DNA from: Candidatus Uhrbacteria bacterium
GTDB lineage: Bacteria; Patescibacteriota; Patescibacteriia; UBA9934
Assembly: GCA_943359345.1 (NCBI GenBank)
Contig: CALRHE010000004.1
Span: 1-59,600 of the forward strand
Direction: 5' to 3'
Length of the DNA: 59,600 nucleotides
A program made the translations under genes and the position numbers. This document shows positions 1,163 through 18,391 of the stretch, in pieces (the first letter of the stretch is position 1; each line of letters opens with the position of its first letter). The notes under the pieces are model-generated. The model was not told the DNA's origin, did no database searches, and saw nothing but the letters and a program-made list of their open reading frames with translations.

Positions 1163-4117
1163 TTATAATTTTGCGGCTGGACAGATGTCTTTAAAATCAC
1201 AGTATCGACACTTCATCGGGTCTGGGTCAGCGGCGAAATCACTTTTGGCAATTCTATCCATAGTTTCAAGTACCTGTTCAATGAGCTTCTCACGATCCTT
1301 ATTACTCGGCTCAAAACTCACCATCTCATTGGTCGTAAGGTAATAATACGTCAGGCGACGGATAGGTTTGGGATTTGGCAAACACTGCTCAAGTGCTAGA
1401 GCATACAACACCAATTGACGCTTATCGTCCCACTCAAGCTTGGATTTTGGATTGCCGGTTTTGTAATCGATAATTTCTAGGCCCCCATCATCGGTCTCAT
1501 CGATGCGATCAATTCTACCCTTAACCAGTACGTCGCCAAGCTTGAGAGTGAAGCCTTGCTCGAGACTAAAAACCTTAGGAGTCTTATCTACGACCTGAGC
1601 GTGAAATTTTCTAAGTGATTCGCGGCCTTGCTCGCGATACTCTTCTCGCTCTTCATTCGAGGTATACCACTCGTCGATAAAACCTTGGTCGAATAGGTCT
1701 AGGAGCTCCTTGAGCACAGGGACAGGCGGGCTCGAGCTTGTTGTGTCACCAAAAAGTGAGACCTGGGTTGCGTCCTGACGTTTTTTTACTTGCTCTAAAA
1801 ATTTCTGGAGCGTGTTATGCATCGATTTTCCAAAACTTAAACTGTGACGTCCGAAGGTTGGAACTTTTAGGATGTGAGCATACTTGTATTGCAGTGGACA
1901 GGTTGTAAAAGCCGCAATCTGAGAAAAACTAATGCGTTCGGGAACTGAATGGAGTAGCTGTTGGTGAGCTCGGACGCTGGCTTCAGGCAGAGTGAGCACA
2001 TCCCGACTCCCAACTGACTGTGCTGGCGTATCAAAACCAAGCTCGGTCAAGAATCGGGAAACCTTACGCTTACGCGAACCGCCATAATCCGCGGCTGACA
2101 TCAAATACAAACCCTCCTTGGCTCTTGTCATGGCCACGTAAAAAAGACGTCGCTCCTCAGCCACGTGATCATCAAGCTCAGCCGTGCCCTGTATCAGTCC
2201 CGGTGGCAAGGGCAAGGCCTCACTACGCGTTATTGAGGGGAAACGTTGCTCAATCAAATTGACCACGAACACGTACCGGAACTCGAGTCCCTTGGCACCA
2301 TGAATTGTCATAACGTTAACCACGTCTGGACCTGACTGGTCATCAGCCTTCAAGCTGCCGGCTTCACCGGCTTCACGCTCAGCCTCAAACTCATCTAGGA
2401 AAGAGGTGGAACTCTTGTCCTCGTTAGCATTTGCAAAACGCTTCAGGCGCGACAAAAAACCCTCCAAATGTCTGAACACCTCTTGTTGTTCGATCTCGGG
2501 CAAGCCACTAACGTCACCAAGTAAGCCTGTGCGTTTCAAAATAAATATAAACAGCTCAGTTACAGGAACTCGTTTAGCCTGATTACGAATGTCAGAAATG
2601 ATCTGCAGAACTTCTAGCATGCGTCCCCTACCCTCAAGTGAAATGCCGATGGCTTCAGTTGACCGCTGCATAGCGTCTACAATTGCCACCCCCTTACGTT
2701 TAACATGAAGCATGAGCTCTGACAGATCGCTCTCAGACACGCCAAGTCTGGGGTGCGATAAAATCCGGTAAGCAGCTGGGCTGTCAAAAGCTAAACGTGC
2801 GAGACGCATGTAGGCCAAAGTGTCCATGATAATCGGTTGCGTGTACAAGCCCGACATGGCCACAAACTTATAAGGGACACCAGCGCGCTCAAGCGCTTCA
2901 AGGAAAGGTTCAGAGGCATCGTTAGCTCGAACGAGTATGCAAAATTCGTTCCATGATCCGCCCGATTTTTTTTGGAGTTCAAGGATCTCACGCACTGTCA
3001 ATTCAACCTCGTCATCGAGTGTGTCGCAGTGCACATGCTTAACAAAGCCCTCTCCGGCCGCCTGCGCTCGTAAGGCCTTAGATAAACCCTCGGTGGCTTC
3101 TAAACGGTGCGGGTTATTTTGTTGAATCAGGCGGTAGGCACCGTCAAGAATAGCCTTACCGCTTCTATAATTACTTGTCAGCACCACTTTCGTAGCCTCG
3201 TTAAAATCATGGCGGAAAGACAAAATGTTAGCCAGGGCCGCACCTCTAAACTTATAAATTGCCTGGTCATCATCGCCCACAACCGTGAGATTGCGGCGCG
3301 GCTCTGAGAGTAATTTTACAAGTTTATATTGAACAGCGTTCGTATCCTGAAACTCATCGACCACGATGTACCTAAAACGCTCGCGATATTCCTTCAGAAC
3401 ATTTGGCCGTTCCAGAAATAAACGCAAAACGTAGGCCAGCAAGCTACCAAAGTCGAGCATCGATTTGTCCACTAGCAACTGCTCATAGGTGGCGTAGGCA
3501 CGAGCTAATTCCTGCCATTTTTGAAGGTCGAGTTTATCTTCATCGCTCATTGATGCAAAGGTTTCAGGCGCACCCCCAGTTTTTTGAGCGATAAAATCCT
3601 CAACCCATTGAGCGTATTCTTCAGGCGTGACGCCTTCGTCCTTAGCGCGTGAAAAATGTTGCAGCATCGACCTCAGAAACTTAGTCGGATTCCCACGCGG
3701 TCGGAAATACTCAAGTTTGAAGCGGTCAAGGTTGCGTCGCATAAGCAACCAGCTATCAACATCAGTAGCAATTTTAAAATCCTGCGGCAAACCAATATGC
3801 ACACCGTGGGCACGCAAAACTTTTTCACAGAAGGCGTGAAAGGTAGAGATGGAAAGATCGACGTAGCCAATTGGCAATAAACGATCAACCCGTTCCTCCA
3901 TTTCTGTAGCCGCTTTTTCGGTAAAAGTCAGTGCTAAAATGTCCTCTGGTCTAGCTTTGCCTTGGTCAATTAACCAGGCAATTCGGCGCGTAATGACAGT
4001 GGTCTTACCGGTTCCGGCCCCGGCTACAATCATCAGCGGGCCATCGCCGTGAGTAACGGCCATAACCTGCTCGGCATTCAAATCTTTAAGTAAATCGGAG
4101 TTGACCATAGACCTCAA
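1163..4117 (-). CDS. UvrD/PcrA-family SF1A helicase fused to a C-terminal PD-(D/E)XK (RecB/AddB/Cas4-like) nuclease with four Fe-S cysteines
   Basis: AGAGTGKT, VDEFQD, VGDDDQAIYKFRGA, NYRS, MTIHGAKGLEF, EERRLFYVAMTRA; C-terminal GRIDRID...IIDYKTG, QLVLY, TCPLQY and CRYCDFKDICP. Confidence 0.92.
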   Translation of the reverse strand: MRSMVNSDLLKDLNAEQVMAVTHGDGPLMIVAGAGTGKTTVITRRIAWLIDQGKARPEDILALTFTEKAATEMEERVDRLLPIGYVDLSISTFHAFCEKVLRAHGVHIGLPQDFKIATDVDSWLLMRRNLDRFKLEYFRPRGNPTKFLRSMLQHFSRAKDEGVTPEEYAQWVEDFIAQKTGGAPETFASMSDEDKLDLQKWQELARAYATYEQLLVDKSMLDFGSLLAYVLRLFLERPNVLKEYRERFRYIVVDEFQDTNAVQYKLVKLLSEPRRNLTVVGDDDQAIYKFRGAALANILSFRHDFNEATKVVLTSNYRSGKAILDGAYRLIQQNNPHRLEATEGLSKALRAQAAGEGFVKHVHCDTLDDEVELTVREILELQKKSGGSWNEFCILVRANDASEPFLEALERAGVPYKFVAMSGLYTQPIIMDTLAYMRLARLAFDSPAAYRILSHPRLGVSESDLSELMLHVKRKGVAIVDAMQRSTEAIGISLEGRGRMLEVLQIISDIRNQAKRVPVTELFIFILKRTGLLGDVSGLPEIEQQEVFRHLEGFLSRLKRFANANEDKSSTSFLDEFEAEREAGEAGSLKADDQSGPDVVNVMTIHGAKGLEFRYVFVVNLIEQRFPSITRSEALPLPPGLIQGTAELDDHVAEERRLFYVAMTRAKEGLYLMSAADYGGSRKRKVSRFLTELGFDTPAQSVGSRDVLTLPEASVRAHQQLLHSVPERISFSQIAAFTTCPLQYKYAHILKVPTFGRHSLSFGKSMHNTLQKFLEQVKKRQDATQVSLFGDTTSSSPPVPVLKELLDLFDQGFIDEWYTSNEEREEYREQGRESLRKFHAQVVDKTPKVFSLEQGFTLKLGDVLVKGRIDRIDETDDGGLEIIDYKTGNPKSKLEWDDKRQLVLYALALEQCLPNPKPIRRLTYYYLTTNEMVSFEPSNKDREKLIEQVLETMDRIAKSDFAADPDPMKCRYCDFKDICPAAKL

Positions 4118-5731
4118 CTATAAATCTGTTCCAGCACAACTTAAACCTAAAGATTGGCTGCACAGCGGAAAATCTGAAACAATATTCCCTGGTGCTATTT
4201 CGCCTAACAATGGCCAGTTACAAAACGATGGGTCACGAATAACGTAACGTTCGATTCTACCTGACTTAAGATAAACAAGGTGCAGAATTTCGCCGCGACC
4301 ATTCTCCACTGCACCTAGGTCACGACCATCCTTAGGTTCACAAGGCATTAGATGGGCACCTTCGCCTGGATTCTTGCACAATTCTTGGATCAATCTTTGG
4401 CTGTCTTTTAACTCGTCAACCCGAAGCATGAAACGGGCATAAACATCGCCCGTTACCTTGATGGGTACTGTGGGTAGGAAACGCCCATAGGCAGCGTACG
4501 GGTGGTCACGACGTACATCCCGATCAATTCCAGAAGCTCGGGCTGCAATGCCTACAGCACCGTAGGCTAAACCGGCTTCCTTGCTTAAAATACCTATATT
4601 CTCAAGCCGGTCACGTAAACCATCTGACTGGATAGCGAGACTTACCACATCCAGCATCTCATCAATTATCTCACCCATGACAATCGAAATCTTTTGAAAT
4701 TCATTAGCCTGAAAGTCACGCGACACGCCTCCAGGCACAATTAAGCCTCGCCAAAAACGGTTACCTAACAGCTCATCAGACAAGCGCACAACCTGCTCCT
4801 TGAGCCTAAAACCCTGAGATGATAAAAGCGTATACCCGGCGCCCAGGCCGCCAATCGTGGCCAGGTCAGAAATATGCATGGTTACGCGTTCAAGTTCATT
4901 CACGAGCGAACGTAAACTCTGGGCCCGTATAGACACCTTGCAAGCCGCCAAATTCTCAATTGCTTGTGCAAAGGCAAGGGCGTGCGAGGCAGCGGAGTCA
5001 CCACAAATATGCTCCACTAGCGTTAATGCTTCAGGTAGATTTTTACCTTCCAATAATTTTTCAACACCTTTATGAGTGAAAAAAAACTTACTCTCAAGGG
5101 CTATCATCCGCTCACCAGCTACGTTTAAACGAAAATGTGCGGGCTCACTAATACCCCCATAAACAGGTCCGAGTGGAATTTCAACAACACCCTCACCTAT
5201 CACAAACGGCATCGGATAAGCTATGTCGGCCGTCTCCATTTTAGCGTTCCACATAAAATCCTTGCGGAGCGGAAAATGTCCTTCCGGTACATTTTCATGG
5301 TGAACCAAACGTCGTGGGTCAGGATGACCAACTGCCTCAATACCGAACATGTCTTGAATAAATCTTTCGAACCAATGGGCCGCCATGACGCGACGTGTAA
5401 CCGATGGGTAGCTTAGATCTTCAGGCTGCAAACGTGTGGACAATAAAAACCAGGTCTGACTTGTGTCATCGTGCAGCAAAGCGTGCACACCATAACTACC
5501 CGCGCTAGTCCGATCATCAGTTGCGTACAGGTGTGCCAAAGCTAAACCAACGCCCACCAAACCGCTGACATCCAAGCTCATGCTCAGCTGCGTGGTTAGG
5601 CCCCTGACATTCACCAGTTCATCAATAATGTCGGCAAATTTTTCGCGCGGCACACTGGCGAAAACAAGGTCAGACCTGTCTGCCTGAATATGTAGGCCAA
5701 GCACGTTGCCCAAGAATTCTTTAAGGCTCAT
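4118..5731 (-). CDS. hyfG: Group-4 hydrogenase-related (Ehr) large subunit, HycE/HyfG-like NuoC+NuoD fusion, lacking NiFe-binding CxxC motifs
   Basis: WFERFIQDMFGI..GHPDPRRL, FPLRKDF, GPVYGGISEPAHFR, THKGVEK, ENGRGE, RDPSF; L1 reads HICGDS and the C-terminus reads DFPLCSQSLGLSCAGTDL (no DPCxxC). Confidence 0.88.
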   Translation of the reverse strand: MSLKEFLGNVLGLHIQADRSDLVFASVPREKFADIIDELVNVRGLTTQLSMSLDVSGLVGVGLALAHLYATDDRTSAGSYGVHALLHDDTSQTWFLLSTRLQPEDLSYPSVTRRVMAAHWFERFIQDMFGIEAVGHPDPRRLVHHENVPEGHFPLRKDFMWNAKMETADIAYPMPFVIGEGVVEIPLGPVYGGISEPAHFRLNVAGERMIALESKFFFTHKGVEKLLEGKNLPEALTLVEHICGDSAASHALAFAQAIENLAACKVSIRAQSLRSLVNELERVTMHISDLATIGGLGAGYTLLSSQGFRLKEQVVRLSDELLGNRFWRGLIVPGGVSRDFQANEFQKISIVMGEIIDEMLDVVSLAIQSDGLRDRLENIGILSKEAGLAYGAVGIAARASGIDRDVRRDHPYAAYGRFLPTVPIKVTGDVYARFMLRVDELKDSQRLIQELCKNPGEGAHLMPCEPKDGRDLGAVENGRGEILHLVYLKSGRIERYVIRDPSFCNWPLLGEIAPGNIVSDFPLCSQSLGLSCAGTDL

Positions 5732-7206
5732 AAGAGTCCGGGGTTAAACGACTGGGCTATACCGAGCATAAAGGCTAGCCCGGCTGGAGTGATATAAAAC
5801 ACCCCCAAAGCCACCGCCAAAAGCAGATGTAGACCCATGACTAGGTGAGTTATATTCCAGGGCTCAGCCACCGTGTTTGAGAATCGTCCGGGCGAGGTAA
5901 ATAAGAGCCCGTAAACATTTCTGATCATAGCCACACTAGCCACTACCAGAGCCAATGAAACCACAAGCGTAATTAATACGTGCTCTCTGAGGCCAAAGCC
6001 AATCACCAACATCTGACTCACAAAGACACCTGAGGGCGGGATAGCTGACAGCATGAGTAAAGTCAACAGAAAGAGCAAACCCGTCCTTGGCAACTTTACC
6101 CAAACGTCCTTTATCAGTGATGTATCGGTTGTTTTGTAGGCTGTAACAATCTCGCCAGCCCCAAAAAATAAGCCCGACTTGAGTAAGGCATGTCCGGGCA
6201 TGTGCATGAGCATAGGCACCAAGCCCGCGGGCCCAAGCCCGATTGCCAAAGTCATCAAGCCCATATGTTCAATGCTTGAATAGGCTAGCAAACGTTTATA
6301 GTTTTTCTGAAGCATTAGGCTGAGCGCGGGCACAACGATGGATAAGCAGCCGAAGACTAAAAACAGTCTGCCTGTCCAAACACCATTATCCATGAAAGCC
6401 AGATCAGCAACTTGTCGAAAGCGTAAAAGTGAGACCAGAGCCACATTCAGTAATACGCCAGATAACAAGGCCGAGATTGGCGCTGGTGTCTTGCTGTGTG
6501 CATCTGGTAGCCAGGTGTGCATTGGGACTAAGCCGATCATGGTTCCGATACCCATAAACACAAACACAAAAGCCCAGTGCATGATTTGGACATTCATACC
6601 TTGAGCGGCAGCAATATCACGAACAGTAGAGAGTAAGAATGAGCTGCCCACACCACTTTGTCCGGCGGCATAAGCGGTGAGGAAGATTCCGATTAAACAC
6701 AAACTCAAACCCAGAGAACACAAGAGGATTGATTTCCAAGCCGCCTCAAGGGCCGAACGTTTACGGTAGAAAGCTATGAGCAGAATCATTAATAGAGTCG
6801 CGGCTTCGAGTGCTAGCCACAGCAAACCCAGATGATTACTGAGCACAGCTACATACATGGCAGCACTTAACAACGGTGCCAGACTGAAATAACGCCGAAT
6901 ATCAGCGGTTGAAATAATTTGCTCTGCTTGTTCACGGGCCAGGTAACGATAGGCAGCCAGCGTAGCTGAAAATGAAATAAGCGCAATCAAAACCAGATTG
7001 AGTGCTGCAATACCGTCCAGATACCATAAGGACCATGGTCCGATGATTCCAACCTGAGAAAAGCCGGGCCAGGCAATATATATGGCCAGGGCCGAACTAA
7101 TCGCCATGAACATCAAACCCAAATATCGAGCCCGCCGGTCAGAAATTGGCAGGTAAGCCGTAGCTGCAGCGATGCTTAGCACGCCGATCAAGATCAGAGG
7201 CAACAT
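5728..7206 (-). CDS. hyfF: HyfF-like (NuoL/M/N, Mrp antiporter-like) membrane subunit
   Basis: WLALEAATL, HTWLPDAHS, SALLSG, KRLLAYSSIEHMG, KSGLFFGAG. Confidence 0.88.
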   Translation of the reverse strand: MLPLILIGVLSIAAATAYLPISDRRARYLGLMFMAISSALAIYIAWPGFSQVGIIGPWSLWYLDGIAALNLVLIALISFSATLAAYRYLAREQAEQIISTADIRRYFSLAPLLSAAMYVAVLSNHLGLLWLALEAATLLMILLIAFYRKRSALEAAWKSILLCSLGLSLCLIGIFLTAYAAGQSGVGSSFLLSTVRDIAAAQGMNVQIMHWAFVFVFMGIGTMIGLVPMHTWLPDAHSKTPAPISALLSGVLLNVALVSLLRFRQVADLAFMDNGVWTGRLFLVFGCLSIVVPALSLMLQKNYKRLLAYSSIEHMGLMTLAIGLGPAGLVPMLMHMPGHALLKSGLFFGAGEIVTAYKTTDTSLIKDVWVKLPRTGLLFLLTLLMLSAIPPSGVFVSQMLVIGFGLREHVLITLVVSLALVVASVAMIRNVYGLLFTSPGRFSNTVAEPWNITHLVMGLHLLLAVALGVFYITPAGLAFMLGIAQSFNPGLL

Positions 7207-7211
7207 ATTGG

Positions 7212-7874
7212 TTAACCAATTAATTCACGCAATTCACCAGTATCCTCCACTGCGTATAGTTCCTTAAGCCTACGTGCTAATAAACTCATGAGGAGCACCC
7301 CAAGAGTGACAGTGAGGTCAATCCCCAACTCTGCCAAAAGCGGGATCGCCCCCAGTGTAGCTGTAGCCAAAAGCGTGATGCCATTTCCGAGGGTGAAAAA
7401 AGCGATTATCTGCGAATACGGATCGCGGCGCACCATCATCGTGACACTACCTATAAGCATGATTGCAAAGGCTAGACAAATCAAAATCAAGTTGACATCC
7501 GAAACCGCGGGTGCAATCGCTCTAGCCGCCATAACCGCCACTCCTAAGGCCACACCGAAAACAAAGTATGACCCAGCTGAACTAACCAACGATATCAAGC
7601 GACCACTAGTATATGAACGTTTGGCACTGCTAGTAATAATTACGGGAATCAGCATGGCCTTAAAGATTAAAACACAGACAGCATTCAGATAAAGATGTTG
7701 GTCACCGTGAAAGGCTAAACTGCCCAAGAGCAACGCTAGAAACATTGATTGGAGTGCAAAGTAACGCACCATTTGACCTTGACGAAACTTACTACTGCCC
7801 CAAACAGCACACAATAAAAGTGCTACGGCTAAAGCTGTAGTGACGATGTCAAATGAATTTAAGACTGAGGTCAT
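7212..7874 (-). CDS. hyfE: HyfE-like membrane subunit
   Basis: Position between hyfC and hyfF homologs; 'LIFKAMLIP' and 'SQIIAFFTLGNGI' resemble HyfE. Confidence 0.75.
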   Translation of the reverse strand: MTSVLNSFDIVTTALAVALLLCAVWGSSKFRQGQMVRYFALQSMFLALLLGSLAFHGDQHLYLNAVCVLIFKAMLIPVIITSSAKRSYTSGRLISLVSSAGSYFVFGVALGVAVMAARAIAPAVSDVNLILICLAFAIMLIGSVTMMVRRDPYSQIIAFFTLGNGITLLATATLGAIPLLAELGIDLTVTLGVLLMSLLARRLKELYAVEDTGELRELIG

Positions 7875-8824
7875 ATAAGGCGTGACAAGAGTGCTAAGGA
7901 CACACCACCGAGTGCCATAAAGAAGGCGCTCGTTAGAAACTCTTGAATACGATAGAGCCGTACCCTGGCAATGCTAGATTCAAGCAAGGCAATAACAAAC
8001 ATTACCACTAACAACTTGAGCAAGGTTGCTAGAATTACACTGAACACAGTCAGGCCGCTGGATGTAGCTACAAGGATTGGCCAGGGTAATATCAGATTAG
8101 CAAGCAAGAGCACAAACACGGTTAGCTTAAGCGCGGAGGCATATTCAAGCATGGCCAGATACGGACCAGAGTAATCAAAGACCGTGGCTTCATGCATCAT
8201 TGTAAGTTCCAGTTGCGTACCTGGTTCGTCAACTGGATAACGGGCAGTTTCAGCCAAAGCAGTGAGCATGAGTGCAAACCATGACAACACCAAATACGGT
8301 GCCTGAATTAGCAGACCTCCGACCATGACCTGACCGCTAATCACTCCGTCAAGTGTAGATGACCCGGTGGCAAGAACTAAAGCTATAAAAGTCAGAATTA
8401 TGGTGGGCTCAAACAAAGCCGCCAGCGTGATGGCACGGCTGCCACCCAAACCTCCAAACGCACTTCCAGCATCGAACGCACCCATGACCAAAAACGTTGA
8501 ACTCAATAACAGCACAGCCGCGACCACAATAAAATTCGACAGCGCAGTCAAACTCCCGCCTACGGACACAAGCGGTAAAACTAAAGCTAAAAAAATATTC
8601 GATCCCAGCACTGCATAGGGTGTTACGTGCAGCATCCATGAACCGGTACTCGAAATTACGTTCTCCTTTTTCAATAAATTAGCGTATGTAATATAGGGTA
8701 ACCACGGTACAGCCCCATGACGACCTTGCAATCGGGCTTTGAACCAGCGCACGCCACCCACTGACATAGGTGCCAGTGACAAGACAAGGCTTATCTGAAT
8801 TAGACTTAATATGAGCGGGCTCAT
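7871..8824 (-). CDS. hyfC: HyfC/HycD-like (NuoH-like) membrane subunit
   Basis: KARLQGRHG, GSAFGGLGGSR, AETARYPVD, LELTMMHEA..DYSG. Confidence 0.88.
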   Translation of the reverse strand: MSPLILSLIQISLVLSLAPMSVGGVRWFKARLQGRHGAVPWLPYITYANLLKKENVISSTGSWMLHVTPYAVLGSNIFLALVLPLVSVGGSLTALSNFIVVAAVLLLSSTFLVMGAFDAGSAFGGLGGSRAITLAALFEPTIILTFIALVLATGSSTLDGVISGQVMVGGLLIQAPYLVLSWFALMLTALAETARYPVDEPGTQLELTMMHEATVFDYSGPYLAMLEYASALKLTVFVLLLANLILPWPILVATSSGLTVFSVILATLLKLLVVMFVIALLESSIARVRLYRIQEFLTSAFFMALGGVSLALLSRLI

Positions 8825-10815
8825 AAGGCAATCATCAGGGTTAAGACCGTGGCTAGTAAAATCAAGCTAATATACGCTTGGAGATTACCACTTTGGAGTC
8901 TTACCACGAGGCTGGCTAGACGTGTAAACCCAGCACCAATAGGCACATACAGCCGGTCGTACCATACCTGATTGATAAGCAATGTCATCGAACGTGCAAC
9001 AATCCAGCGATTATGGGTCGTGACCGGAGTGACATTGACTAGTTTTTTTGTGCGCAGAAAAAAACTAAATAAAAATCTGATCGGAGCCGAAAAGGCCGTG
9101 CTCGTGAACTCCATACGTGGAGTTAGAGGCTGGCCACCATCCCAGGTTTGATATTCACGTGTCAGCTTTACATCACTGATCAAGCCACGTATCAACCACA
9201 GACCGAACACCACCACCAGCATAAATAAGGCTAAATCCATCGGTACCAAACTGCCTCCACCAGTGACCAAAATTTGCTGACTAAAGTTGGCTGGCGCTAT
9301 GCCTACAGCTCCAATGCCGTTCAGCACCTGAGGCGCAAATAAACCCAGCATAAGTCCGAGTCCTGACAGTGAAGTTATTGGAAGCAAGAACTCGAGCCCA
9401 GGCTGCATAGCTGCAGCTGCTGGCTCAGAACGAGCTTGTGCTAAAAATGCCATGGCGTACAGCTTCACCATTGCAAATACAGCCAGACCGGTCACAAAAG
9501 TAATGGTGGACACAGTTACCAAGATCATAATCTTGAGCCTCAATGAAGACTCTTCCAAACCGCCCACCATAGCCTGCACAAAAATCCAGTCAGCTATAAA
9601 CGGTGCGAACGGTGGTAAAAAAGCTGCACCCAATATAAGCATGAACACCCCTACAGATAACTGGGGCATGCGCTTCGCCAATCCGCCCATAGCTTCAAGT
9701 CTGCGACTACGAGCGGCCGCCACTAGCACACCTGAAGCCAGGAATAATCCAGACTGACACACGGCCTGGGCCAGCATCAAAAATATCGCAGCGTACACCG
9801 CAGCCTGGGCCAGGACCAGATTCCCCTCTTGTCCAGCCAGTAACGCCAAGCCAAGCATAGTAAACATGATCCCAAAATTCTGAATACTCGTGTAAGCTAA
9901 TAAACGTGTGATGTCGCGCTCAAGCACGGAATATAAAACGCCTACAACTGCGGACAGTAAGCCCAGAAAAAACACTGTAAACACTGCCCACATCGGAACT
10001 CCTGGCAGTAAGAACAGAAAAACTCTTAAAAAACCATACACGGCAATGTTTAGCATGGCTCCGGATAACAGCGCTGAGACCTGGGTTGGAACTTGGGAGT
10101 GAACCTCTGGCAACCAAACGTGGAATGGAACCAAACCAGCCTTGCACCCGAAGCCAAAAATTAGGAGTCCAATGGCTACAAATAAACTGACCTGAGGAAG
10201 ATCGGCAGTCATTTGAGCTAAGACTGAAAAATTATTCAGTAAGGCTCCACCAGACAACAGGAAAAGTCCAGCCATGATGGCGCTCGTACTCAGATGAGCC
10301 AAGATCAAGTACAAAAACCCAGCTTTACGTGAGACCGCCTTGCCATCAGCCAGGATGAGAAAGAACAGGGTTATCGACATGATCTCCCAGAAAGTCATGA
10401 AGCCGAAAATATTTGTTGATAAAATAACGCCTTGCATGCCAAAGATAAACACCGCCGTTAGGATGTTCACATTCCGAATATTGTAGTTATCTGGTTGCTG
10501 TTCAAGGTACGGAATCGCGTACGCGGCTGCAAAAAAACTTATTCCTGACACGAGTGTATAAAAAATCGCTGAAAACCGATCAAGACTGAAATTCATGCCA
10601 TAAAATACCGGCCACAGACTGGCAGAAGGTAAAATCAACGGTTCGGTAGCAGTGGCTATAAATATACCCACCACCGCTCCCATAAGGGCGCACACAGCTA
10701 CGATCAGGTTACTCAACCGATGCGCATGACGGTTGGGCAAGCTTGCTACCACCGCTGCCAGGGCCATACCTAGGAACGAGGCTAGTAGCATAATCGCCAG
10801 GGCTTGCATAGTCAT
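8821..10815 (-). CDS. hyfB: HyfB/HycC-like (NuoL-like) antiporter-type membrane subunit
   Basis: FWEIMS, KAGLVPFHVWLPEVH, LLAYTS, LGGL-like 'AMGGLAKRMP', C-terminal RLQSGNLQAYI. Confidence 0.88.
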   Translation of the reverse strand: MTMQALAIMLLASFLGMALAAVVASLPNRHAHRLSNLIVAVCALMGAVVGIFIATATEPLILPSASLWPVFYGMNFSLDRFSAIFYTLVSGISFFAAAYAIPYLEQQPDNYNIRNVNILTAVFIFGMQGVILSTNIFGFMTFWEIMSITLFFLILADGKAVSRKAGFLYLILAHLSTSAIMAGLFLLSGGALLNNFSVLAQMTADLPQVSLFVAIGLLIFGFGCKAGLVPFHVWLPEVHSQVPTQVSALLSGAMLNIAVYGFLRVFLFLLPGVPMWAVFTVFFLGLLSAVVGVLYSVLERDITRLLAYTSIQNFGIMFTMLGLALLAGQEGNLVLAQAAVYAAIFLMLAQAVCQSGLFLASGVLVAAARSRRLEAMGGLAKRMPQLSVGVFMLILGAAFLPPFAPFIADWIFVQAMVGGLEESSLRLKIMILVTVSTITFVTGLAVFAMVKLYAMAFLAQARSEPAAAAMQPGLEFLLPITSLSGLGLMLGLFAPQVLNGIGAVGIAPANFSQQILVTGGGSLVPMDLALFMLVVVFGLWLIRGLISDVKLTREYQTWDGGQPLTPRMEFTSTAFSAPIRFLFSFFLRTKKLVNVTPVTTHNRWIVARSMTLLINQVWYDRLYVPIGAGFTRLASLVVRLQSGNLQAYISLILLATVLTLMIAL

Positions 10816-10818
10816 AGG

Positions 10819-11361
10819 CTAGGCACGGGCTGATTCAAGAGCCTGTAATACACCTCGGAGTATGTTGGTAGGTGAAGGCGGGTCGCCAGGAATGCGCACG
10901 TGGACCGGAATAACTGCATCAACTGGACCAACTACGGCATAAGAGTCTTTCCAAAGGCCGCCAGCACACGCCCCATCACCAATCGCGACTACTAGGCAAG
11001 GTTGCGGGGCGGCTGCATAGGTAGTCCTTAGGGCTCGTTCCATGTTCCGAGTCACTGGCCCAGTCACAAATAATATATCGGCGTGTCTGGGTGAGGCTAC
11101 GAAACTTAAGCCGAATCGTTCAAGATCGTAATAAGCATTACTAAGCGCACTCAGTTCTTGTTCTTCGGCGTTGGATGAGCCAGCATTGACTGCACGAATG
11201 CGTAACGCTCGTCCGGAGTACAAGTCCTTAACTACAGCCCTCAAAGCCTCACCCACAACCTCAAAATCATTGGCCTTGACCTGCGTGAAATTTTGCTCGT
11301 GCAAAGTGACCCTCGGTCCAAAAAACAGCAAATTCAGCAGGCGTAACAGCGTCATATGCAA
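10819..11361 (-). CDS. hyfI: HycG/HyfI-like (NuoB-like) small subunit with the Fe-S cysteines substituted
   Basis: YYDLERFG, FVASPRHADILFVTGPVTRNM; motifs read GSSNAE, GDGAC and IPGDPP in place of GSCNGC, GDCA and GCPP. Confidence 0.88.
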   Translation of the reverse strand: MHMTLLRLLNLLFFGPRVTLHEQNFTQVKANDFEVVGEALRAVVKDLYSGRALRIRAVNAGSSNAEEQELSALSNAYYDLERFGLSFVASPRHADILFVTGPVTRNMERALRTTYAAAPQPCLVVAIGDGACAGGLWKDSYAVVGPVDAVIPVHVRIPGDPPSPTNILRGVLQALESARA

Positions 11362-11379
11362 AAGTCTGTGAATGACCGA

Positions 11380-11408
11380 AGTTTACGCCCCGGGTCTAGA
11401 TGTGGCAA
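11380..11408 (-). promoter_or_regulatory. Putative sigma70 promoter for the hyf/ehr cluster
   Basis: Minus strand TTGCCA (11408-11403), 17 nt, TAAACT (11385-11380), about 20 nt before the hyfI start. Confidence 0.5.
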
Positions 11409-11418
11409 TAACCCTGGC

Positions 11419-11844
11419 CTAGCGTCGACGTTGGCCCTTAACGGCCACGCGATAGCGGGCTAATTCACGTTCTAGATGAGCGGCTGCGCTTGCAAAAGAC
11501 ACGTCTTCACGGTTACGAATATTTTTCAAAGCCTCTTCGGCTAAACGTTTAGCTGTTTCAATTTTTTCAAGCTCAAGTTCCTCAGATCTTTCCGCCGTAT
11601 TAGCCAAAATTACGATCTGATTATTCTTTTTAACCTCAAGTAAACCGGTCGAGACCGCCAAGAGCTCCTCCTTACCCTCCAGAGTTCTCACGCGCATCTC
11701 TCCCGCCTTCAAAAGTGAAGCCAGCGGAATATGACCGGGCAAAACCGTAATCTCGCCGTCTTCGGTCATAACCGAAAGCGACGTAGCCTCACCCTCGAGG
11801 ACTACTCGTTCAGGGGTGATGATTTTGTAGGTGAGGTTCTTCAT
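11419..11844 (-). CDS. atpC: ATP synthase F1 epsilon subunit
   Basis: IITPER, GEITVLPGHIPL, C-terminal helical hairpin. Confidence 0.95.
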   Translation of the reverse strand: MKNLTYKIITPERVVLEGEATSLSVMTEDGEITVLPGHIPLASLLKAGEMRVRTLEGKEELLAVSTGLLEVKKNNQIVILANTAERSEELELEKIETAKRLAEEALKNIRNREDVSFASAAAHLERELARYRVAVKGQRRR

Positions 11845-11862
11845 ACTTGTGGCAGGGTGTTT

Positions 11863-11973
11863 AGATATTAGGAATTAGATATTAGTAAGAATGTAGAAGT
11901 TTGATCTTAGACTAACTGCAGCCCCCTAACTTCTAAAGTCTAAGCTCTTACTAATATCTAATTCCTAATATCT
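11863..11973. repeat. Perfect 28-bp inverted repeat built from 7-nt units in the atpD-atpC spacer
   Basis: agatattaggaattagatattagtaaga (11863-11890) and its exact reverse complement (11946-11973). Confidence 0.9.
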
Positions 11974-11983
11974 TCATCTAGTA

Positions 11984-14216
<2,233 letters not shown>

Positions 14217-14224
14217 AGACCGAT

Positions 14225-14298
14225 GGGGTTAACGGGGTTGAGGGGGTTGATGATGGCACACCGGACCTCGGTGAACAGTCAACTGTCAACGGTAAACG
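14225..14298. repeat. Three 9-nt units (ggggttRaN) plus four 7-nt units (gtNaacN) in the atpA-atpG spacer
   Basis: ggggttaac ggggttgag ggggttgat (14225-14251); gtgaaca gtcaact gtcaacg gtaaacg (14271-14298). Confidence 0.7.
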
Positions 14299-14300
14299 AA

Positions 14301-15800
14301 TTACTTAAATGTTGAAACAAAATCTTTGATGTGCTTTTCAAGATCGCCCTGTACTTCCTTAACGTCGCGGCTGTCGAAAATAGCCTTCAAAGTCTCGCCA
14401 CCAAGACCCTGCATGTACTTGATGAGCTCAGCCTCGAAGCGATGCACCTCGGCCACCGCGATGTCGTCGATGTAACCATTGTTGAGCGCAAACATAATCA
14501 CTGACTGCTCAGCAAACGACATCGGGGAGTATTGCTTTTGCTTCATGACCTCCATGGCCCGACGACCACGTTCGATCTGCTGCTTGGTGGCCTCGTCGAG
14601 GTCGGTGGCAAACTGGGCAAAGGCTTCGAGCTCGCGATATTGAGCTAGGTCGACCTTCAGCGTCTTAGCCACAGCCTTCATAGCCTTGGTCTGAGCAGCC
14701 GAGCCCACGCGTGACACCGAGTTACCAATGTTCACAGCCGGACGCTGACCACGGTAGAAGAGATCGCTCTCCAAGAAAATTTGACCATCGGTAATTGAAA
14801 TCACGTTTGTCGGAATGTAGGCCGAGATATCACCACCTTGAGTTTCGATAATCGGTAAGGCCGTAATCGATCCCCCGCCGTTCTCCTTGTTCATGCGAGC
14901 AGAGCGCTCAAGCAAACGAGAGTGTAAGTAGAAGACGTCACCCGGATAAGCTTCGCGTCCCGGTGGACGACGAAGTAAAAGAGAAATTTCGCGGTAGGCC
15001 CAAGCGTGCTTGGACAAATCATCGTAAACTATCAGAACGTCCTCGCCCTTAGCCATGAAGTACTCAGCAATGGCACAACCAGCGTAAGGAGCGATGTAAA
15101 GCATGGCGGCGGGGTCGGAAGCGCCTGCGACCACGATGGTCGTGTACTCCATAGCCCCGGCCTTCTCAAGACGCGTACGAATCTGAGCCACCTTAGATTC
15201 CTTTTGACCGATAGCCACGTAGACGCACTTAGTGTTCTCACCCTTCTGGTTCAAAATCGTGTCAATAGCGATGGCGGTCTTACCCGTTTGGCGGTCACCG
15301 ATGATAAGCTCGCGTTGTCCGCGACCGATCGGGATCAGTGCATCGATTGCCTTAATACCGGTGTGCATCGGCACGCCCACTGACTGGCGGGTCATAACGC
15401 CTGGAGCAACCTTTTCGATCGGTACAAACTCGGCGTTAGCAATAGCGCCCTTGCCATCCACTGGATTACCGAGCGAGTCAACCACGCGACCAACAATACT
15501 ATCGGCAACAGGGATCGAAAGAATACGGCCGGTTGAACGCACGGTGTCGCCAGCCTTCACGGCCCAAGCGTCGCCAAGCAAAATTGCCCCGGTAGTTTCT
15601 TCCTCAAGGTTTAAAGCTACACCAAACACACCCGACCCAAAGTCCAACATTTCTTGGCTCTTCACGCTAGACAAACCGCTCATACGGGCCACGCCATCGG
15701 AAACCGAAACGACTGTGCCCACGCGCTCTTCATGCGCTTCGGCTTTAAAGGCCTCAACCTGCTTGCGCAGAGCCTCGATGATGTCCATTTTCTTTGCCAT
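14301..15800 (-). CDS. atpA: ATP synthase F1 alpha subunit
   Basis: [31 protein letters not shown]. Confidence 0.99.
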
Positions 15801-15803
15801 AAT

Positions 15804-16187
15804 TTAGGAAAGTAACGCTTGTTTCAAACGCGTAAGAGCTCCGAGCACGGTGCCGTCAATGCGTCGCTCATCGAGCCGAATGAGGGCACCGCCCATCAGC
15901 CGCTCGTCGACCAACCGCTGAACTTCAGCCCCATTGGCGAGTTGTTCGATTTTTTCCATGGCCTTGTCCGTGAGTGGATGAGCCGAGGCGATGGTGATCT
16001 TTGAAGCTCCGTATTTTTCGCGCCAGGCTTCGTTAAGCTCACGCTCCAAATCACGCCAACGTCCGAGCAAACCCTTGCTGGCCAAGTAGGTCACGACCTC
16101 GGCCATGTGCCTATCAATATCCTTAGCCGTTTTGCCCTCGAGCTCGTTAACCAAGGTACGAGCAATCCCGCGCATGCTTTTCTTCAT
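15804..16187 (-). CDS. atpH: ATP synthase delta subunit (short form)
   Basis: Operon position; 'VDERLMGGALIRLDERRIDGTV' OSCP C-terminal motif. Confidence 0.88.
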   Translation of the reverse strand: MKKSMRGIARTLVNELEGKTAKDIDRHMAEVVTYLASKGLLGRWRDLERELNEAWREKYGASKITIASAHPLTDKAMEKIEQLANGAEVQRLVDERLMGGALIRLDERRIDGTVLGALTRLKQALLS

Positions 16188-16190
16188 ACG

Positions 16191-16763
16191 CTAGGTGAGT
16201 TTACGTACCATTTCTTCAGCCAAAGACTGTGACTTCTTTTCAGTCAAACCTTCGGTGACGATCTTGGCAGCAGCCTTAACAGCGATGTCAACCAAATCCT
16301 TGCGAGCCGTCATAAGCATGGCCACACGCTCTTCGTCCAGTTGTTGTTTACCCCTCTGGATAACGCGCTCAACCTCACGCTTGGCGGCCTCAACCATCTC
16401 GTTCTTACGGGCTTCAGTGTCAGCCACGGCTTTGTCGATGATCGCTTGAGCTTCGCCACGAGCCGCCACCACAATTTTCTGGTGTTCGACCTCAGCGTCA
16501 CGCAAGCGTTTCTCGATGGCCTCAGCATTCTTCACGCTTTCAGCGATCTTCTGTTCGCGCTCTTCGAGCAGGCGCATGATTGGCTTGTAGGCAAAGCGCC
16601 ACAAGACCAGCAACACCAATAAGAAGTTCACGAGCTGGGCCGCAAATAAATCGCCGCGCAACCCAAAAGTACCGATCACACCCTCAAGCCCACCCTCTTC
16701 AGAGTGTTCTTGAGTAGCGGTAGTGGTCGTGACTGCGTCCTCGGTGGTAGTTGACATACGCAA
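16191..16763 (-). CDS. atpF: ATP synthase Fo b subunit
   Basis: AQLVNFLLVLLVLWRFAYKPI, LEEREQKI, coiled coil. Confidence 0.95.
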   Translation of the reverse strand: MRMSTTTEDAVTTTTATQEHSEEGGLEGVIGTFGLRGDLFAAQLVNFLLVLLVLWRFAYKPIMRLLEEREQKIAESVKNAEAIEKRLRDAEVEHQKIVVAARGEAQAIIDKAVADTEARKNEMVEAAKREVERVIQRGKQQLDEERVAMLMTARKDLVDIAVKAAAKIVTEGLTEKKSQSLAEEMVRKLT

Positions 16764-16779
16764 ACGTTAAACGCAAGAA

Positions 16780-17010
<231 letters not shown>

Positions 17011-17020
17011 TTAATTATCC

Positions 17021-17048
17021 GAACCTTGAACACTGGACATTGAACATG
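17021..17048. repeat. Four 7-nt units in the atpB-atpE spacer
   Basis: gaacctt gaacact ggacatt gaacatg. Confidence 0.55.
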
Positions 17049-17143
17049 AAAAGTTTGCTCAATGTTGAAGGTTAAAGATTCGGTGAGAGTTGAGGTCTCT
17101 CCGTAGAATCACCGTGCTCGATGACGCTGCGGAGGTACCCCAC

Positions 17144-18016
17144 TTAGGCGTGGGCTGGAGCGTGTTCTTTATCATGATTTTCCTCCTCATGTCCATGTTC
17201 CATGGTCGCCACCGTCAGGAACACCAAGACCAGCAATGCGAAAACTGTGGCCTGAATGACGCCCACGAGAATTTCAAGGAACATGAACGGAATCGGGATC
17301 ACAAATGACGCCAAACTGAGCATGACGCCAATCAAAATTTCACCAGCAAAAACGTTGCCAAACAAACGCAGTGACAACGAAGCGATACGCGCAGCCTCGC
17401 CGATGATCTCGAGCAAACCGACGAAGAACTCAATAATAGCAACGCCGATAGCGACCGGACCTTTAGGGATAGCTCGGAAGATGCCTCGAATATTAATAAA
17501 TTTACTCACGTAGTTTACAAAACCCACGCCGCGGACGCCAGCCAGCTGCACAATCACCACCGAGAAAACCGCCAAGGCTAAAGTGAGGTTCAGATCGGAC
17601 GTGGCTGGTCGCAACAAGGGAATGAGTTCAACAGCGCCATGAACCTCTCCATAAAAACCGATTGTGCCCGTACCTGGAATGAGTCCCAACCAGTTATTCG
17701 CCAGAATGAACAAAAACAAGGTCGCAACCAGTGGGAAAAAGACTTTGGTCTTTTTGTGATCACCGGTGACCTTGTCCATTTCGTCCATCATGAAAACCAC
17801 GATGGTCTCAAACACATTGTGAATACCCCGAGGCACAAGCGAGGTACGACGCGAAGCGACGGCGGCAATCAGGAGAAAAACCAGCGTCACGATCCAAGCA
17901 TTGAGCATGGTGTTCGTGACTGGAAAATTACCCAGCTGAAAAATTGGTTCAGCGGCTAGCGCTGCCCCCAGAACCGGGAGGTTTAATGTCCGTAAGTTTT
18001 TTATACTCTGTGCCAT
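17144..18016 (-). CDS. atpB: ATP synthase Fo a subunit
   Basis: AAEPIF, NNWLGLIPG, RPATSDLN, SLSLRLFGNVFAGE, IQATVFALL. Confidence 0.97.
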   Translation of the reverse strand: MAQSIKNLRTLNLPVLGAALAAEPIFQLGNFPVTNTMLNAWIVTLVFLLIAAVASRRTSLVPRGIHNVFETIVVFMMDEMDKVTGDHKKTKVFFPLVATLFLFILANNWLGLIPGTGTIGFYGEVHGAVELIPLLRPATSDLNLTLALAVFSVVIVQLAGVRGVGFVNYVSKFINIRGIFRAIPKGPVAIGVAIIEFFVGLLEIIGEAARIASLSLRLFGNVFAGEILIGVMLSLASFVIPIPFMFLEILVGVIQATVFALLVLVFLTVATMEHGHEEENHDKEHAPAHA

Positions 18017-18224
18017 AACCTTGAACCTTTTTTACCACCATCAGTAAACTGAGAATAAACACCGCGATGAGACTTATGAAAAAGATGAGCTGCTCGTAAG
18101 CTAGGTGATCATAGGCCTTACGCAGCAATATGACCAAGACCGGCGGAATCAACATGGTGCCCGTAATATCGGCCATGGCTTTCATGGCGAATAAGTACAA
18201 AACACGTAAGTCATTTTCTACCAT
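17949..18224 (-). CDS. AtpZ/AtpI-like small membrane protein (start moved to ATG 18224)
   Basis: Two TM helices (DITGTMLIPPVLVILL; LIFFISLIAVFILSLLMV) directly upstream of atpB; the longer 18440 start gives non-protein-like sequence. Confidence 0.65.
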   Translation of the reverse strand: MVENDLRVLYLFAMKAMADITGTMLIPPVLVILLRKAYDHLAYEQLIFFISLIAVFILSLLMVVKKVQGYGTEYKKLTDIKPPGSGGSASR

Positions 18225-18391
18225 AAAAGCGCTAGGAGTATACGTGTCTAGATGGCTAGCGTCAAGAATCAAGAAACTGCAAGAACAGGACCACGCCCGA
18301 TAAAATACGAAACCGCCCACCAGATGAGCCGGAAGGCGGCTCGTGGCACGTCGTTTGTAAACGGCGTGCCGTGGTGGGCGGTGAGGAGATG

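Follow-up and report, generated by a model that had tools for sequence, protein, structure and literature searches.

A stretch of 59,600 nucleotides from a Candidatus Uhrbacteria bacterium (the window; contig CALRHE010000004.1 of assembly GCA_943359345.1, which is contig C4 of the genome here called G000, 0.73 Mb in 24 contigs and 97.8% complete) bears on the use that the candidate phyla radiation (CPR, Patescibacteria) makes of F-type ATP synthases, and on what sets the membrane potential of these bacteria. On the minus strand of the window, a complete atp(I)BEFHAGDC operon is followed, 57 nt on, by six tightly coupled genes for an energy-converting hydrogenase-related (Ehr) complex of the CPR type. 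A sequence-only reading of the window had suggested that the two complexes may be functionally paired, with the Ehr derivative supplying, converting or dissipating the gradient used by the ATP synthase. Part of this proposal stands, as the two gene sets are associated at the level of the class to which the genome belongs. The idea of Ehr as the source of the gradient fares worse: few of the class genomes that encode an ATP synthase also encode Ehr, relay residues of the window copy have been replaced, and the gene cluster has been lost, partly or wholly, from genomes of the window's own genus.

Linkage was scored by mapping the proteins of the window onto sampled loci, including a class-wide sample of 401 genomes of the window's own (Uhrbacteria/Magasanikbacteria-type) class. 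The small subunit EhrS was found in 25 of these 401 genomes, and the ATP synthase subunit AtpD in 310. Among the 21 Ehr-bearing class genomes that were informative, the atp operon adjoins ehr in approximately 15, which represent 9 families, and linkage is absent from the other 6. The adjacency is thus not a peculiarity of this genome. Fourteen genomes carry the two clusters in tandem, with atp upstream of ehrS (G208, G754, G544, G500, G664, G595, G575, G499, G492, G437, G543, G683, G468 and G573), and the arrangement is divergent in G416; three further atp/ehr arrangements were seen among loci fetched from genome contigs. The gaps between atpC and ehrS in relatives measure 7, 31, 76, 88, 163 and 230 nt, or range from 0.9 to 4.5 kb.

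A wider, mixed set brought together fetched loci, taken from a pattern scan of one genome per species (more than 595 loci, 80 of which were fetched), and a phylum-wide sample of 401 genomes, 18 of which contained the large subunit (about ten of the full-length Ehr type). In this set, 11 of 45 informative loci were linked, and linkage is rare outside the class. Several of the linked loci are identical to class genomes (L022 is G208, L087 is G573 and L100 is G416). Two more of the linked loci carry unreliable "Saccharibacteria" labels: in L037, ehr precedes atp on one strand, and in L082 the two clusters are convergent. Several loci from third-party-annotation metagenome-assembled genomes labelled as 'uncultured Gammaproteobacteria', 'Bdellovibrionales' or 'Saccharibacteria' (L033-L035, L042-L044, L048-L050 and L100) also group with CPR Ehr. 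L100 is the same contig as G416, a class genome. These NCBI organism labels look unreliable.

The gene order S-L-H-E-M-CD recurs in more than 70 loci. Trees of the large subunit were built without the reference sequences from the 2013 and 2020 Ehr papers. In these trees, the window is sister to the same-genus genome G754 in a 13-row clade (Shimodaira-Hasegawa-like approximate likelihood ratio test support 100), together with loci from Uhrbacteria, Kaiserbacteria and Parcubacteria; the closest relatives that bear a name are metagenome-assembled genomes of Candidatus Uhrbacteria. Loci with atp linkage occur in both major Ehr subclades, between which large-subunit identity is ~37%, and at least 11 changes of linkage state are needed on the tree. 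The results support a real association of atp and ehr at the class level, which probably extends to transcription, especially at the tightest junctions. Because EhrS is present in 25 of 401 class genomes and AtpD in 310, most ATP synthases of the class work without Ehr, which makes Ehr an accessory and not the general energiser of CPR ATP synthases.

The term Ehr reportedly goes back to Marreiros and colleagues in 2013; it stands here for a membrane module that derives from complex I and group-4 hydrogenases and has no redox cofactor sites. In the window complex, the cofactor sites of a hydrogenase are gone from both the small and the large subunit. Alignment of EhrS to MbhJ (6cfw_J) and HycG (7z0s_G) shows that its [4Fe-4S] ligands have been lost: the CxxC pair reads S63 and E66, one Cys is shifted by 2 residues from the GxC position, and GDPP replaces GCPP. 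Residue D160 of EhrS is invariant in 8 of 8 CPR sequences and present in 70 of 74 loci of the same gene order. The nearest solved structure to the large subunit EhrL is Escherichia coli HycE (7z0s_E, 1.5e-60), with which it shares the NuoC+D fusion. At the L1 (RxCGxC) and L2 (DPCxxC) sites, EhrL reads HICGDSAASH and ...SLGLSCAGTDL, respectively. Both aligned L2 cysteines and the second L1 cysteine are lost, and C243 remains, at a position that holds Ser in 57 of 61 relatives. Since the corresponding motifs across these 61 relatives read RISGDxxxSH and NLSYSG, the two cysteines of the window at these sites are lineage-specific changes and not retained ligands. Neither redox metal site is intact in the window Ehr, the one Cys left at a NiFe position being a regain of the lineage.

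Redox partner genes are missing as well. The sequence-only reading had noted the absence of hyp, NuoI-like ferredoxin and formate dehydrogenase genes from the window, and this extends to the whole of G000: there were 0 matches to HypD and 0 to molybdopterin oxidoreductase (PF00384), and the classical 4Fe-4S ferredoxin motif C..C..C...C[PGAS] occurs in no open reading frame (ORF) of at least 50 aa. The absence of this motif points to a very poor repertoire of iron-sulfur proteins. The genome holds a single Complex1_49kDa locus and two antiporter-like (PF00361) genes, both of the latter in the ehr cluster, so that a genome-wide search for other pumps of this type adds none. All NCBIfam matches of the cluster (hydrogenase 4 subunits B, F and E; NuoB, D and H) fall below the curated cut-offs.

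Loci in which the small subunit comes last (L-H-E-M-CD-S: L078, L081 and L085-L112; archaeal, acidobacterial and alphaproteobacterial) were considered as true hydrogenases. This was ruled out, as their large subunits also lack the NiFe cysteines, which makes them Ehr-type. In 8 of 17 such loci the small subunit keeps all four [4Fe-4S] cysteines, which are lost in the small-subunit-first loci, mostly of CPR. The motifs RISGDxxxSH and NLSYSG(T/N)DL are conserved in both groups.

The membrane arm of the window copy has changed at positions that its relatives hold nearly invariant. We compared six relay positions, the Glu of transmembrane helix (TM) 5, the Lys of TM7, the Lys of TM8, the His and Lys of TM11 and the Glu of TM12, in an alignment with MbhH, HycC and 69 HyfB-like and 52 HyfF-like relatives. 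The HyfB-like pattern E/K/K/H/K/E is kept in 42 of 42 clade-B sequences and, with few exceptions, elsewhere among the relatives; its TM5 Glu is present in 42 of 42 clade-B and 19 of 19 L-first HyfB-like sequences. The window HyfB-like subunit reads E, K, N, Q, Q, D, in that it keeps Glu144 of TM5 and Lys225 of TM7 and carries the replacements K256N, H350Q, K354Q and E409D. In the HyfF-like subunit, the residues usual for the family, E, K, N, H, K, E/K, have become E, M, N, H, K, Q in the window (K223M and E398Q). The canonical residues replaced in the two window subunits are retained by about 110 relatives. G754 shares Q350 and Q354 of the HyfB-like and Q398 of the HyfF-like subunit, and has lost further lysines.

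This erosion is not confined to the relay. We counted violations in the window, taking the positions with a conservation of 90% or more among other genomes. The HyfB-like subunit shows 27 in 100 (median elsewhere 2), the NuoH-like subunit 15 in 73 (median 1), the large subunit 17 in 119 (median 2) and the HyfF-like subunit 10 in 81, or 12% (median 2). EhrS, with 1 in 60, is as conserved as in other genomes. The ATP synthase subunits gave 5 in 263 (atpD), 10 in 220 (atpA) and 4 in 56 (atpB). Near-invariant positions have thus changed in roughly 15-27% of cases in the HyfB-like, NuoH-like and large subunits, compared with 2-7% for the ATP synthase subunits. The large-subunit tree places the window and G754 on a common long stem (0.44).

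Several genomes of the same genus show what has become of ehr at this site. In G653, whose AtpD is 90% identical, atpC is followed after ~450 nt by the same helicase-nuclease gene that flanks ehr in the window, and by the same downstream genes; the site is empty (L169). In G675, just two intact but highly degenerate polytopic antiporter-like ORFs of 475 and 540 aa lie between atpC and the helicase-nuclease gene (L170, G675:C1:93000-112900, 9155-12209). They match the HyfB-like subunit of the window at an E-value of 2e-9 and the HyfF-like subunit at 6e-11, by which the pair is identified as what is left of the membrane arm of Ehr. G754 has retained the full set of six ehr genes, with a degenerate atp remnant 2 nt in front of them (L138, G754:C3:139500-159400, 7614-10456). 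The remnant encodes b and delta along with an alpha fragment of 266 aa and a beta-like protein of 372 aa, and lacks a, c, gamma and epsilon; a complete but divergent atp operon is present ~190 kb away (L172). The remnant raised the idea of an ATP-driven Ehr, which was rejected since neither the alpha fragment nor the beta-like protein has a P-loop. The genus shows a stepwise dismantling of ehr at one site.

Despite this erosion, the six ehr frames of the window are still kept open by purifying selection. As synonymous sites between G000 and G754 are saturated (third-position difference ~0.6 at identical residues), stop-codon drift was simulated in place of a ratio of nonsynonymous to synonymous rates. 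When neutral drift ran over half the G000-G754 distance, the 1,873 codons acquired 45 in-frame stops on average (never fewer than 29 in 200 runs), versus 0 observed, and the ehr genes of the window are therefore not an array of pseudogenes.

In relatives, the neighbourhood of ehr contains a further recurrent element. Genes with a Cys-x-Asp ... His-x-x-Cys signature often occupy the atpC-ehrS interval or the place immediately behind the large-subunit gene. Searches with hidden Markov models found such genes, which resemble beta-carbonic anhydrases (beta-CAs), beside ehr in 21 distinct loci and in four sequence families (for example, L022 9582-10619; L034 954-1976; L036 9133-9879; L054 9231-9821; L152 1571-2668; and 16 further loci). 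CA1 (340 aa) matches Pfam CsoSCA_cat at 1.7e-9, above the cut-off, and shows the pattern CxDxR ... H ... C. CA2 has no significant family match (Pro_CA_2 0.084), and CA4 matches Pro_CA_2 at 1.1e-7. In CA3, C39, D41, H115 and C118 are invariant, and Foldseek matches of its AlphaFold model (mean predicted local distance difference test score 67.6) are almost all beta-CAs, although weak (E 0.013-0.2, template-modelling score 0.3-0.37). Profile-profile comparison gave weak signals (hhalign E 3e-4 to 0.2) for uniting the four families. A beta-CA-like gene occupies the position of the atpC-ehrS spacer in 9 loci of the window's Ehr subclade, and in L152 atp, ehr and CA1 share a strand, separated by 76 and 7 nt. 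Neither the four CA-like models nor tblastn found a CA-like gene in G000.

Carbonic anhydrases that are coupled to energy are represented by DAB (DabA/DabB) and by CupA on cyanobacterial NDH-1. The relatives of the window Ehr resemble these systems in placing beta-CA-like genes beside a complex-I-type antiporter-like module. They differ in that the link between Ehr and CA is known from gene neighbourhood and involves four weakly similar CA-like families. The feature is found in the 21 related loci and is lacking in the window genome, which does not classify as a DAB- or Cup-like energy-coupled CA system. The match of CA1 to CsoSCA_cat also places it near CsoSCA2, the non-carboxysomal CsoSCA homologues, a named but unstudied CA family (Front Microbiol 2022, PMC9164163). 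The main text of that paper has 0 occurrences of CPR or Patescibacteria, and the family is absent from G000.

A Moranbacteria-type clade has other neighbours. In 10 loci (L041-L044, L047, L049, L050, L055, L057 and L030), a gene for a DedA-like membrane protein lies ~100 nt upstream of ehrS, and six of these ten also have a ~700-aa CPA1-type Na+/H+ antiporter-like protein ~750 nt upstream of ehrS. Both names were given by sequence motifs and not by a family scan; the neighbours may represent another theme of ion and pH homeostasis.

The ATP synthase of the window, by its sequence, looks ordinary, complete and normally conserved. Pfam identified all eight core F1Fo subunits (a, c, b, delta, alpha, gamma, beta and epsilon), and the catalytic and coupling residues are kept, including the P-loops of alpha and beta, the Arg of the a subunit and the Glu of the c subunit. 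The c subunit motif ...GIGLIGN...FAEAIAIY has the carboxylate and none of the Gln/Ser/Thr Na+ ligands of published Na+-binding motifs such as that of Ilyobacter tartaricus. By this sequence reasoning, the c ring fits the H+ type, as the sequence-only reading had held. Same-genus genomes without Ehr have beta subunits that share 87-90% identity with AtpD of the window.

The junction between the two clusters carries few signals. The promoter noted earlier in the gap is present as a motif, TTGCCA-17-TAAACT at 11408-11380, with 9 of 12 matches. It has no statistical weight, however, because the region contains fewer promoter-like matches (11) than shuffled sequence (15.1 +/- 3.8), and as a sign of independent ehr expression it was set aside as uninformative. 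No terminator-like hairpin was seen in the 57-nt gap, the gap folds no better than shuffled sequence (z = -0.83), and a comparison of atp and ehr starts found a clear Shine-Dalgarno sequence in neither set. Recent horizontal transfer of ehr into the atp locus was also rejected, as the GC content of ehr, overall and at third codon positions, matches that of its neighbours and the site is common to several families.

The features of the locus are collected in the table. Gene identities rest on the ORF listing and Pfam scans. Their coordinates bear out the earlier description of the distance between atpC and the first hyf-type gene on the same strand, and of six coupled genes, the junctions within the cluster being, in order, +3, -4, -4, +5 and -4 nt.

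Table. Features of the atp-ehr locus, with positions given in the window
Feature	Position	Strand	Evidence or remark
Best promoter-like site upstream of the atp operon, TTGACG-17-TATACT, 10/12 matches	18237..18265	-	Consensus match only
Small membrane ORF of 91 aa (ATG at 18224) that overlaps the start of atpB, at the usual place of atpI/atpZ	17949..18224	-	Sequence; identity unproven; no NCBIfam match
atpB (Fo subunit a, 290 aa), arginine of LSLRLFGN kept	17144..18016	-	Pfam ATP-synt_A 1.5e-42
atpE (c subunit, 72 aa), carboxylate E59 in FAEAIAIY, without the Na+ ligand set	16780..16998	-	Pfam ATP-synt_C 4.7e-18
atpF (b subunit)	16191..16763	-	Pfam ATP-synt_B 6.4e-22
atpH (short delta/OSCP, 127 aa)	15804..16187	-	Pfam OSCP 3.1e-12
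atpA (alpha), P-loop GDRQTGKT	14301..15800	-	Pfam and motif
atpG (gamma)	13359..14216	-	Pfam ATP-synt 3.3e-88
atpD (beta), P-loop GGAGVGKT	11984..13345	-	Pfam and motif
atpC (epsilon)	11419..11844	-	Pfam ATP-synt_DE_N 7.6e-24
atpC-ehrS spacer, 57 nt	11362..11418	-	63 nt if the ATG at 11355 is the ehrS start
EhrS, NuoB/MbhJ-like small subunit, 180 aa	10819..11361	-	Pfam Oxidored_q6; alignment to 6cfw_J and 7z0s_G
HyfB/NuoL-like antiporter-like subunit, 664 aa	8821..10815	-	Pfam; NCBIfam; alignments to MbhH and HycC
NuoH/HycD-like subunit, 317 aa, strongly diverged	7871..8824	-	Pfam NADHdh 9.2e-28; NCBIfam NuoH only 43.7 bits
HyfE-like small membrane subunit, 220 aa	7212..7874	-	NCBIfam 'hydrogenase 4 membrane subunit' 4.7e-13, under cut-off
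HyfF/NuoM-like antiporter-like subunit, 492 aa	5728..7206	-	Pfam; NCBIfam
EhrL large subunit, NuoC-like domain fused to HycE/NuoD-like domain, 537 aa	4118..5731	-	Pfam Complex1_49kDa, Complex1_30kDa, NiFeSe_Hases
UvrD/AddA-type helicase-nuclease, 984 aa, abutting the ehr cluster	1163..4117	-	Pfam

The helicase-nuclease gene serves as the downstream flank marker of the site and is syntenic in G653, G675, G626, G208 and G664. Its called TTG start directly abuts the EhrL stop (4117-4118, 0-nt spacing), and an alternative ATG start lies two codons downstream of the TTG; given the 0-nt spacing, the gene may be read through from the ehr transcript. The otherwise compact atp operon has two long spacers, of 139 nt between atpD and atpC (11845-11983) and of 84 nt between atpA and atpG (14217-14300).

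Set against known systems, the window complex falls within the CPR Ehr. This was described as a monophyletic, cysteine-less and patchily distributed group that 'likely cannot interact with H2' (Jaffe et al. 2020, BMC Biol, PMC7304191). All four traits on which we based the assignment are present: the large subunit is homologous to that of group-4 [NiFe]-hydrogenases and to NuoD, and lies within group-4-related sequences, it lacks the NiFe cysteines, it falls inside the CPR group on the tree, and the HyfB-, HyfF-, HyfE- and NuoH-like subunits are clustered. The patchy distribution in CPR is shared as well. The window copy differs from other CPR Ehr in lacking relay residues that those keep. ATP synthase has 0 occurrences in the main text of the 2020 paper, and neither the class-wide atp linkage nor the CA-like neighbours are described there.

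Likeness to E. coli formate hydrogenlyase and hydrogenase 4 (PDB 7Z0S) is clear at the level of single subunits, with HycE closest to the large subunit, HycC a close match of the 664-aa subunit and hydrogenase 4 subunits B, F and E as the best NCBIfam names. In contrast to these enzymes, the window lacks the NiFe site, the small-subunit [4Fe-4S] cluster, the HycF/HyfA ferredoxin subunits, formate dehydrogenase and hyp. All three features sought for a group 4 [NiFe]-hydrogenase (Hyf/Hyc/Mbh/Ech), namely NiFe cysteines, [4Fe-4S] ligands and a Hyp protein or ferredoxin subunit, are thus absent. Assignment to respiratory complex I (Nuo) likewise fails, as the N2 ligands are lost and no ferredoxin-type motif is found genome-wide (NuoE, NuoF and NuoG were not the object of a family search). 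A link between formate dehydrogenase and Ehr has been put forward for Margulisbacteria (PMC6349859), and is inapplicable to the window because G000 has no formate dehydrogenase. Among redox-free assemblies, Mrp antiporters and the Mrp-like module of Mbh (PDB 6CFW) would offer the simplest functional analogy, and MbhH and MbhJ are the best solved matches of the 664-aa and small subunits. Ehr, unlike Mrp, keeps a NuoB/C/D/H-like arm, and the Lys/His/Glu relay of Mrp and Mbh, which the relatives retain, is largely replaced in the window.

The reading that we favour, with somewhat more confidence than doubt, joins a normal H+-type ATP synthase with a derived and eroded Ehr accessory of reduced or altered role, whose canonical relay has been lost. 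The atp-then-ehr order is an old synteny of the Uhrbacteria/Magasanikbacteria-type class, in which the module of the relatives usually comes with a beta-CA-like gene. Ehr itself may be an accessory that handles ions independently of redox chemistry and that a minority of lineages express together with the ATPase; in the class, it could be coupled to the chemistry of CO2/bicarbonate, much like DAB or CupA-NDH-1. In the genus of the window the CA-like partner would have been lost, and the 57-nt atpC-ehrS junction may be the scar of that loss. The window module would no longer move protons by the canonical Lys/Glu/His relay, and its remaining role, beside a fully functional ATP synthase, could be structural, regulatory or passive. 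Several points weigh against this account. Loss of the canonical relay is no proof of loss of transport, as the HyfB-like subunit keeps its TM5 Glu and TM7 Lys, E409D is conservative and other residues could substitute. Conserved synteny could in part reflect inheritance without selection. The link to CA is one of gene neighbourhood, two of the four CA-like families have weak support from fold and profile comparisons, and the absence of a CA-like gene from G000 means that it says nothing direct about the window copy.

Three other explanations were weighed against this reading. The window Ehr could be an active ion translocator paired with the ATP synthase, which supplies, converts (H+ to Na+, in an Mrp-like way) or dissipates its gradient. 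The conservation of the pair across the class, often at tight spacing, the lack of a terminator in the gap, the selection that maintains six open frames, the retention of Glu in TM5 and Lys in TM7 of the HyfB-like subunit and of TM5 Glu and TM11 His/Lys in the HyfF-like one, and the fact that ehr holds the only antiporter-like genes of G000 would all fit. We nevertheless regard it as unlikely, considering that six relay residues conserved in nearly all relatives are replaced, that invariant positions are eroded 5-10 times as much as in other genomes, and that same-genus genomes with AtpD 87-90% identical do without Ehr, which is found in only ~8% of the ATP-synthase-bearing genomes of the class. 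Nor is there an identifiable energy input, be it an FeS or NiFe centre, ferredoxin, formate dehydrogenase or CA.

The heavy erosion, the loss of the usual CA-like neighbour and the graded series within one genus, from full but eroded clusters (G000, G754) through a two-gene relic (G675) to an empty site (G653), might instead indicate a functionless relic heading for deletion, whose place behind atp is an ancestral accident. This is rendered distinctly improbable by the lack of any stop or frameshift in ~7.2 kb in two lineages with saturated synonymous sites, where drift predicts ~45 stops. The derived Q350, Q354 and Q398, common to G000 and G754, must also have been held since the two split, and EhrS is conserved as in other genomes. 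Finally, the adjacency might carry no functional meaning at all, being an inherited order in small, slowly rearranging genomes with separate expression of the two clusters. Such a view could draw on the unrelated genes (ABC transporter, MBL-fold hydrolase, ORFans) that hold the clusters 0.9-4.5 kb apart in several relatives, on the promoter-like motif in the window gap, and on the 6 Ehr-bearing class genomes and ~34 loci outside the class that are unlinked. We give it very little credence, since linkage survives across 9 families and both divergent Ehr subclades while the gene downstream does not stay the same, the clusters remain together whether their arrangement is tandem, inverted-order, convergent or divergent, and junctions of 7, 31, 76 and 88 nt offer hardly any space, if any, for separate regulation.

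The window copy is the weaker, derived example of the pairing, at the eroded end of the series. CPR Ehr itself has been published (Jaffe 2020, PMC7304191). It is the class-wide linkage that is of interest: a complex-I-like module that is redox-dead is genetically tied to the ATP synthase across one class. We found no paper that reports a link of Ehr to atp, or to CA, in CPR. With ~8% of the ATP-synthase-bearing class genomes encoding it, Ehr cannot be the general answer to how CPR ATP synthases are energised. One genus preserves successive stages of its dismantling, and an intact relative, the relay-neutralised window copy and the two-gene relic are concrete constructs for a comparison of transport and CO2 dependence. 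It is conceivable, although we hold it to be rather doubtful, that ATP synthase, cofactor-free Ehr and an interchangeable beta-CA-like protein form a single bioenergetic supermodule of the class, with CO2/bicarbonate proton chemistry replacing electron transfer as the coupled reaction. If so, the genus of the window would provide a natural dissection series, from G000 and G754 (CA lost and relay neutralised, genes kept) through G675 (membrane-arm relic) to G653 (empty), which could be used to learn what service the module renders to the ATPase.

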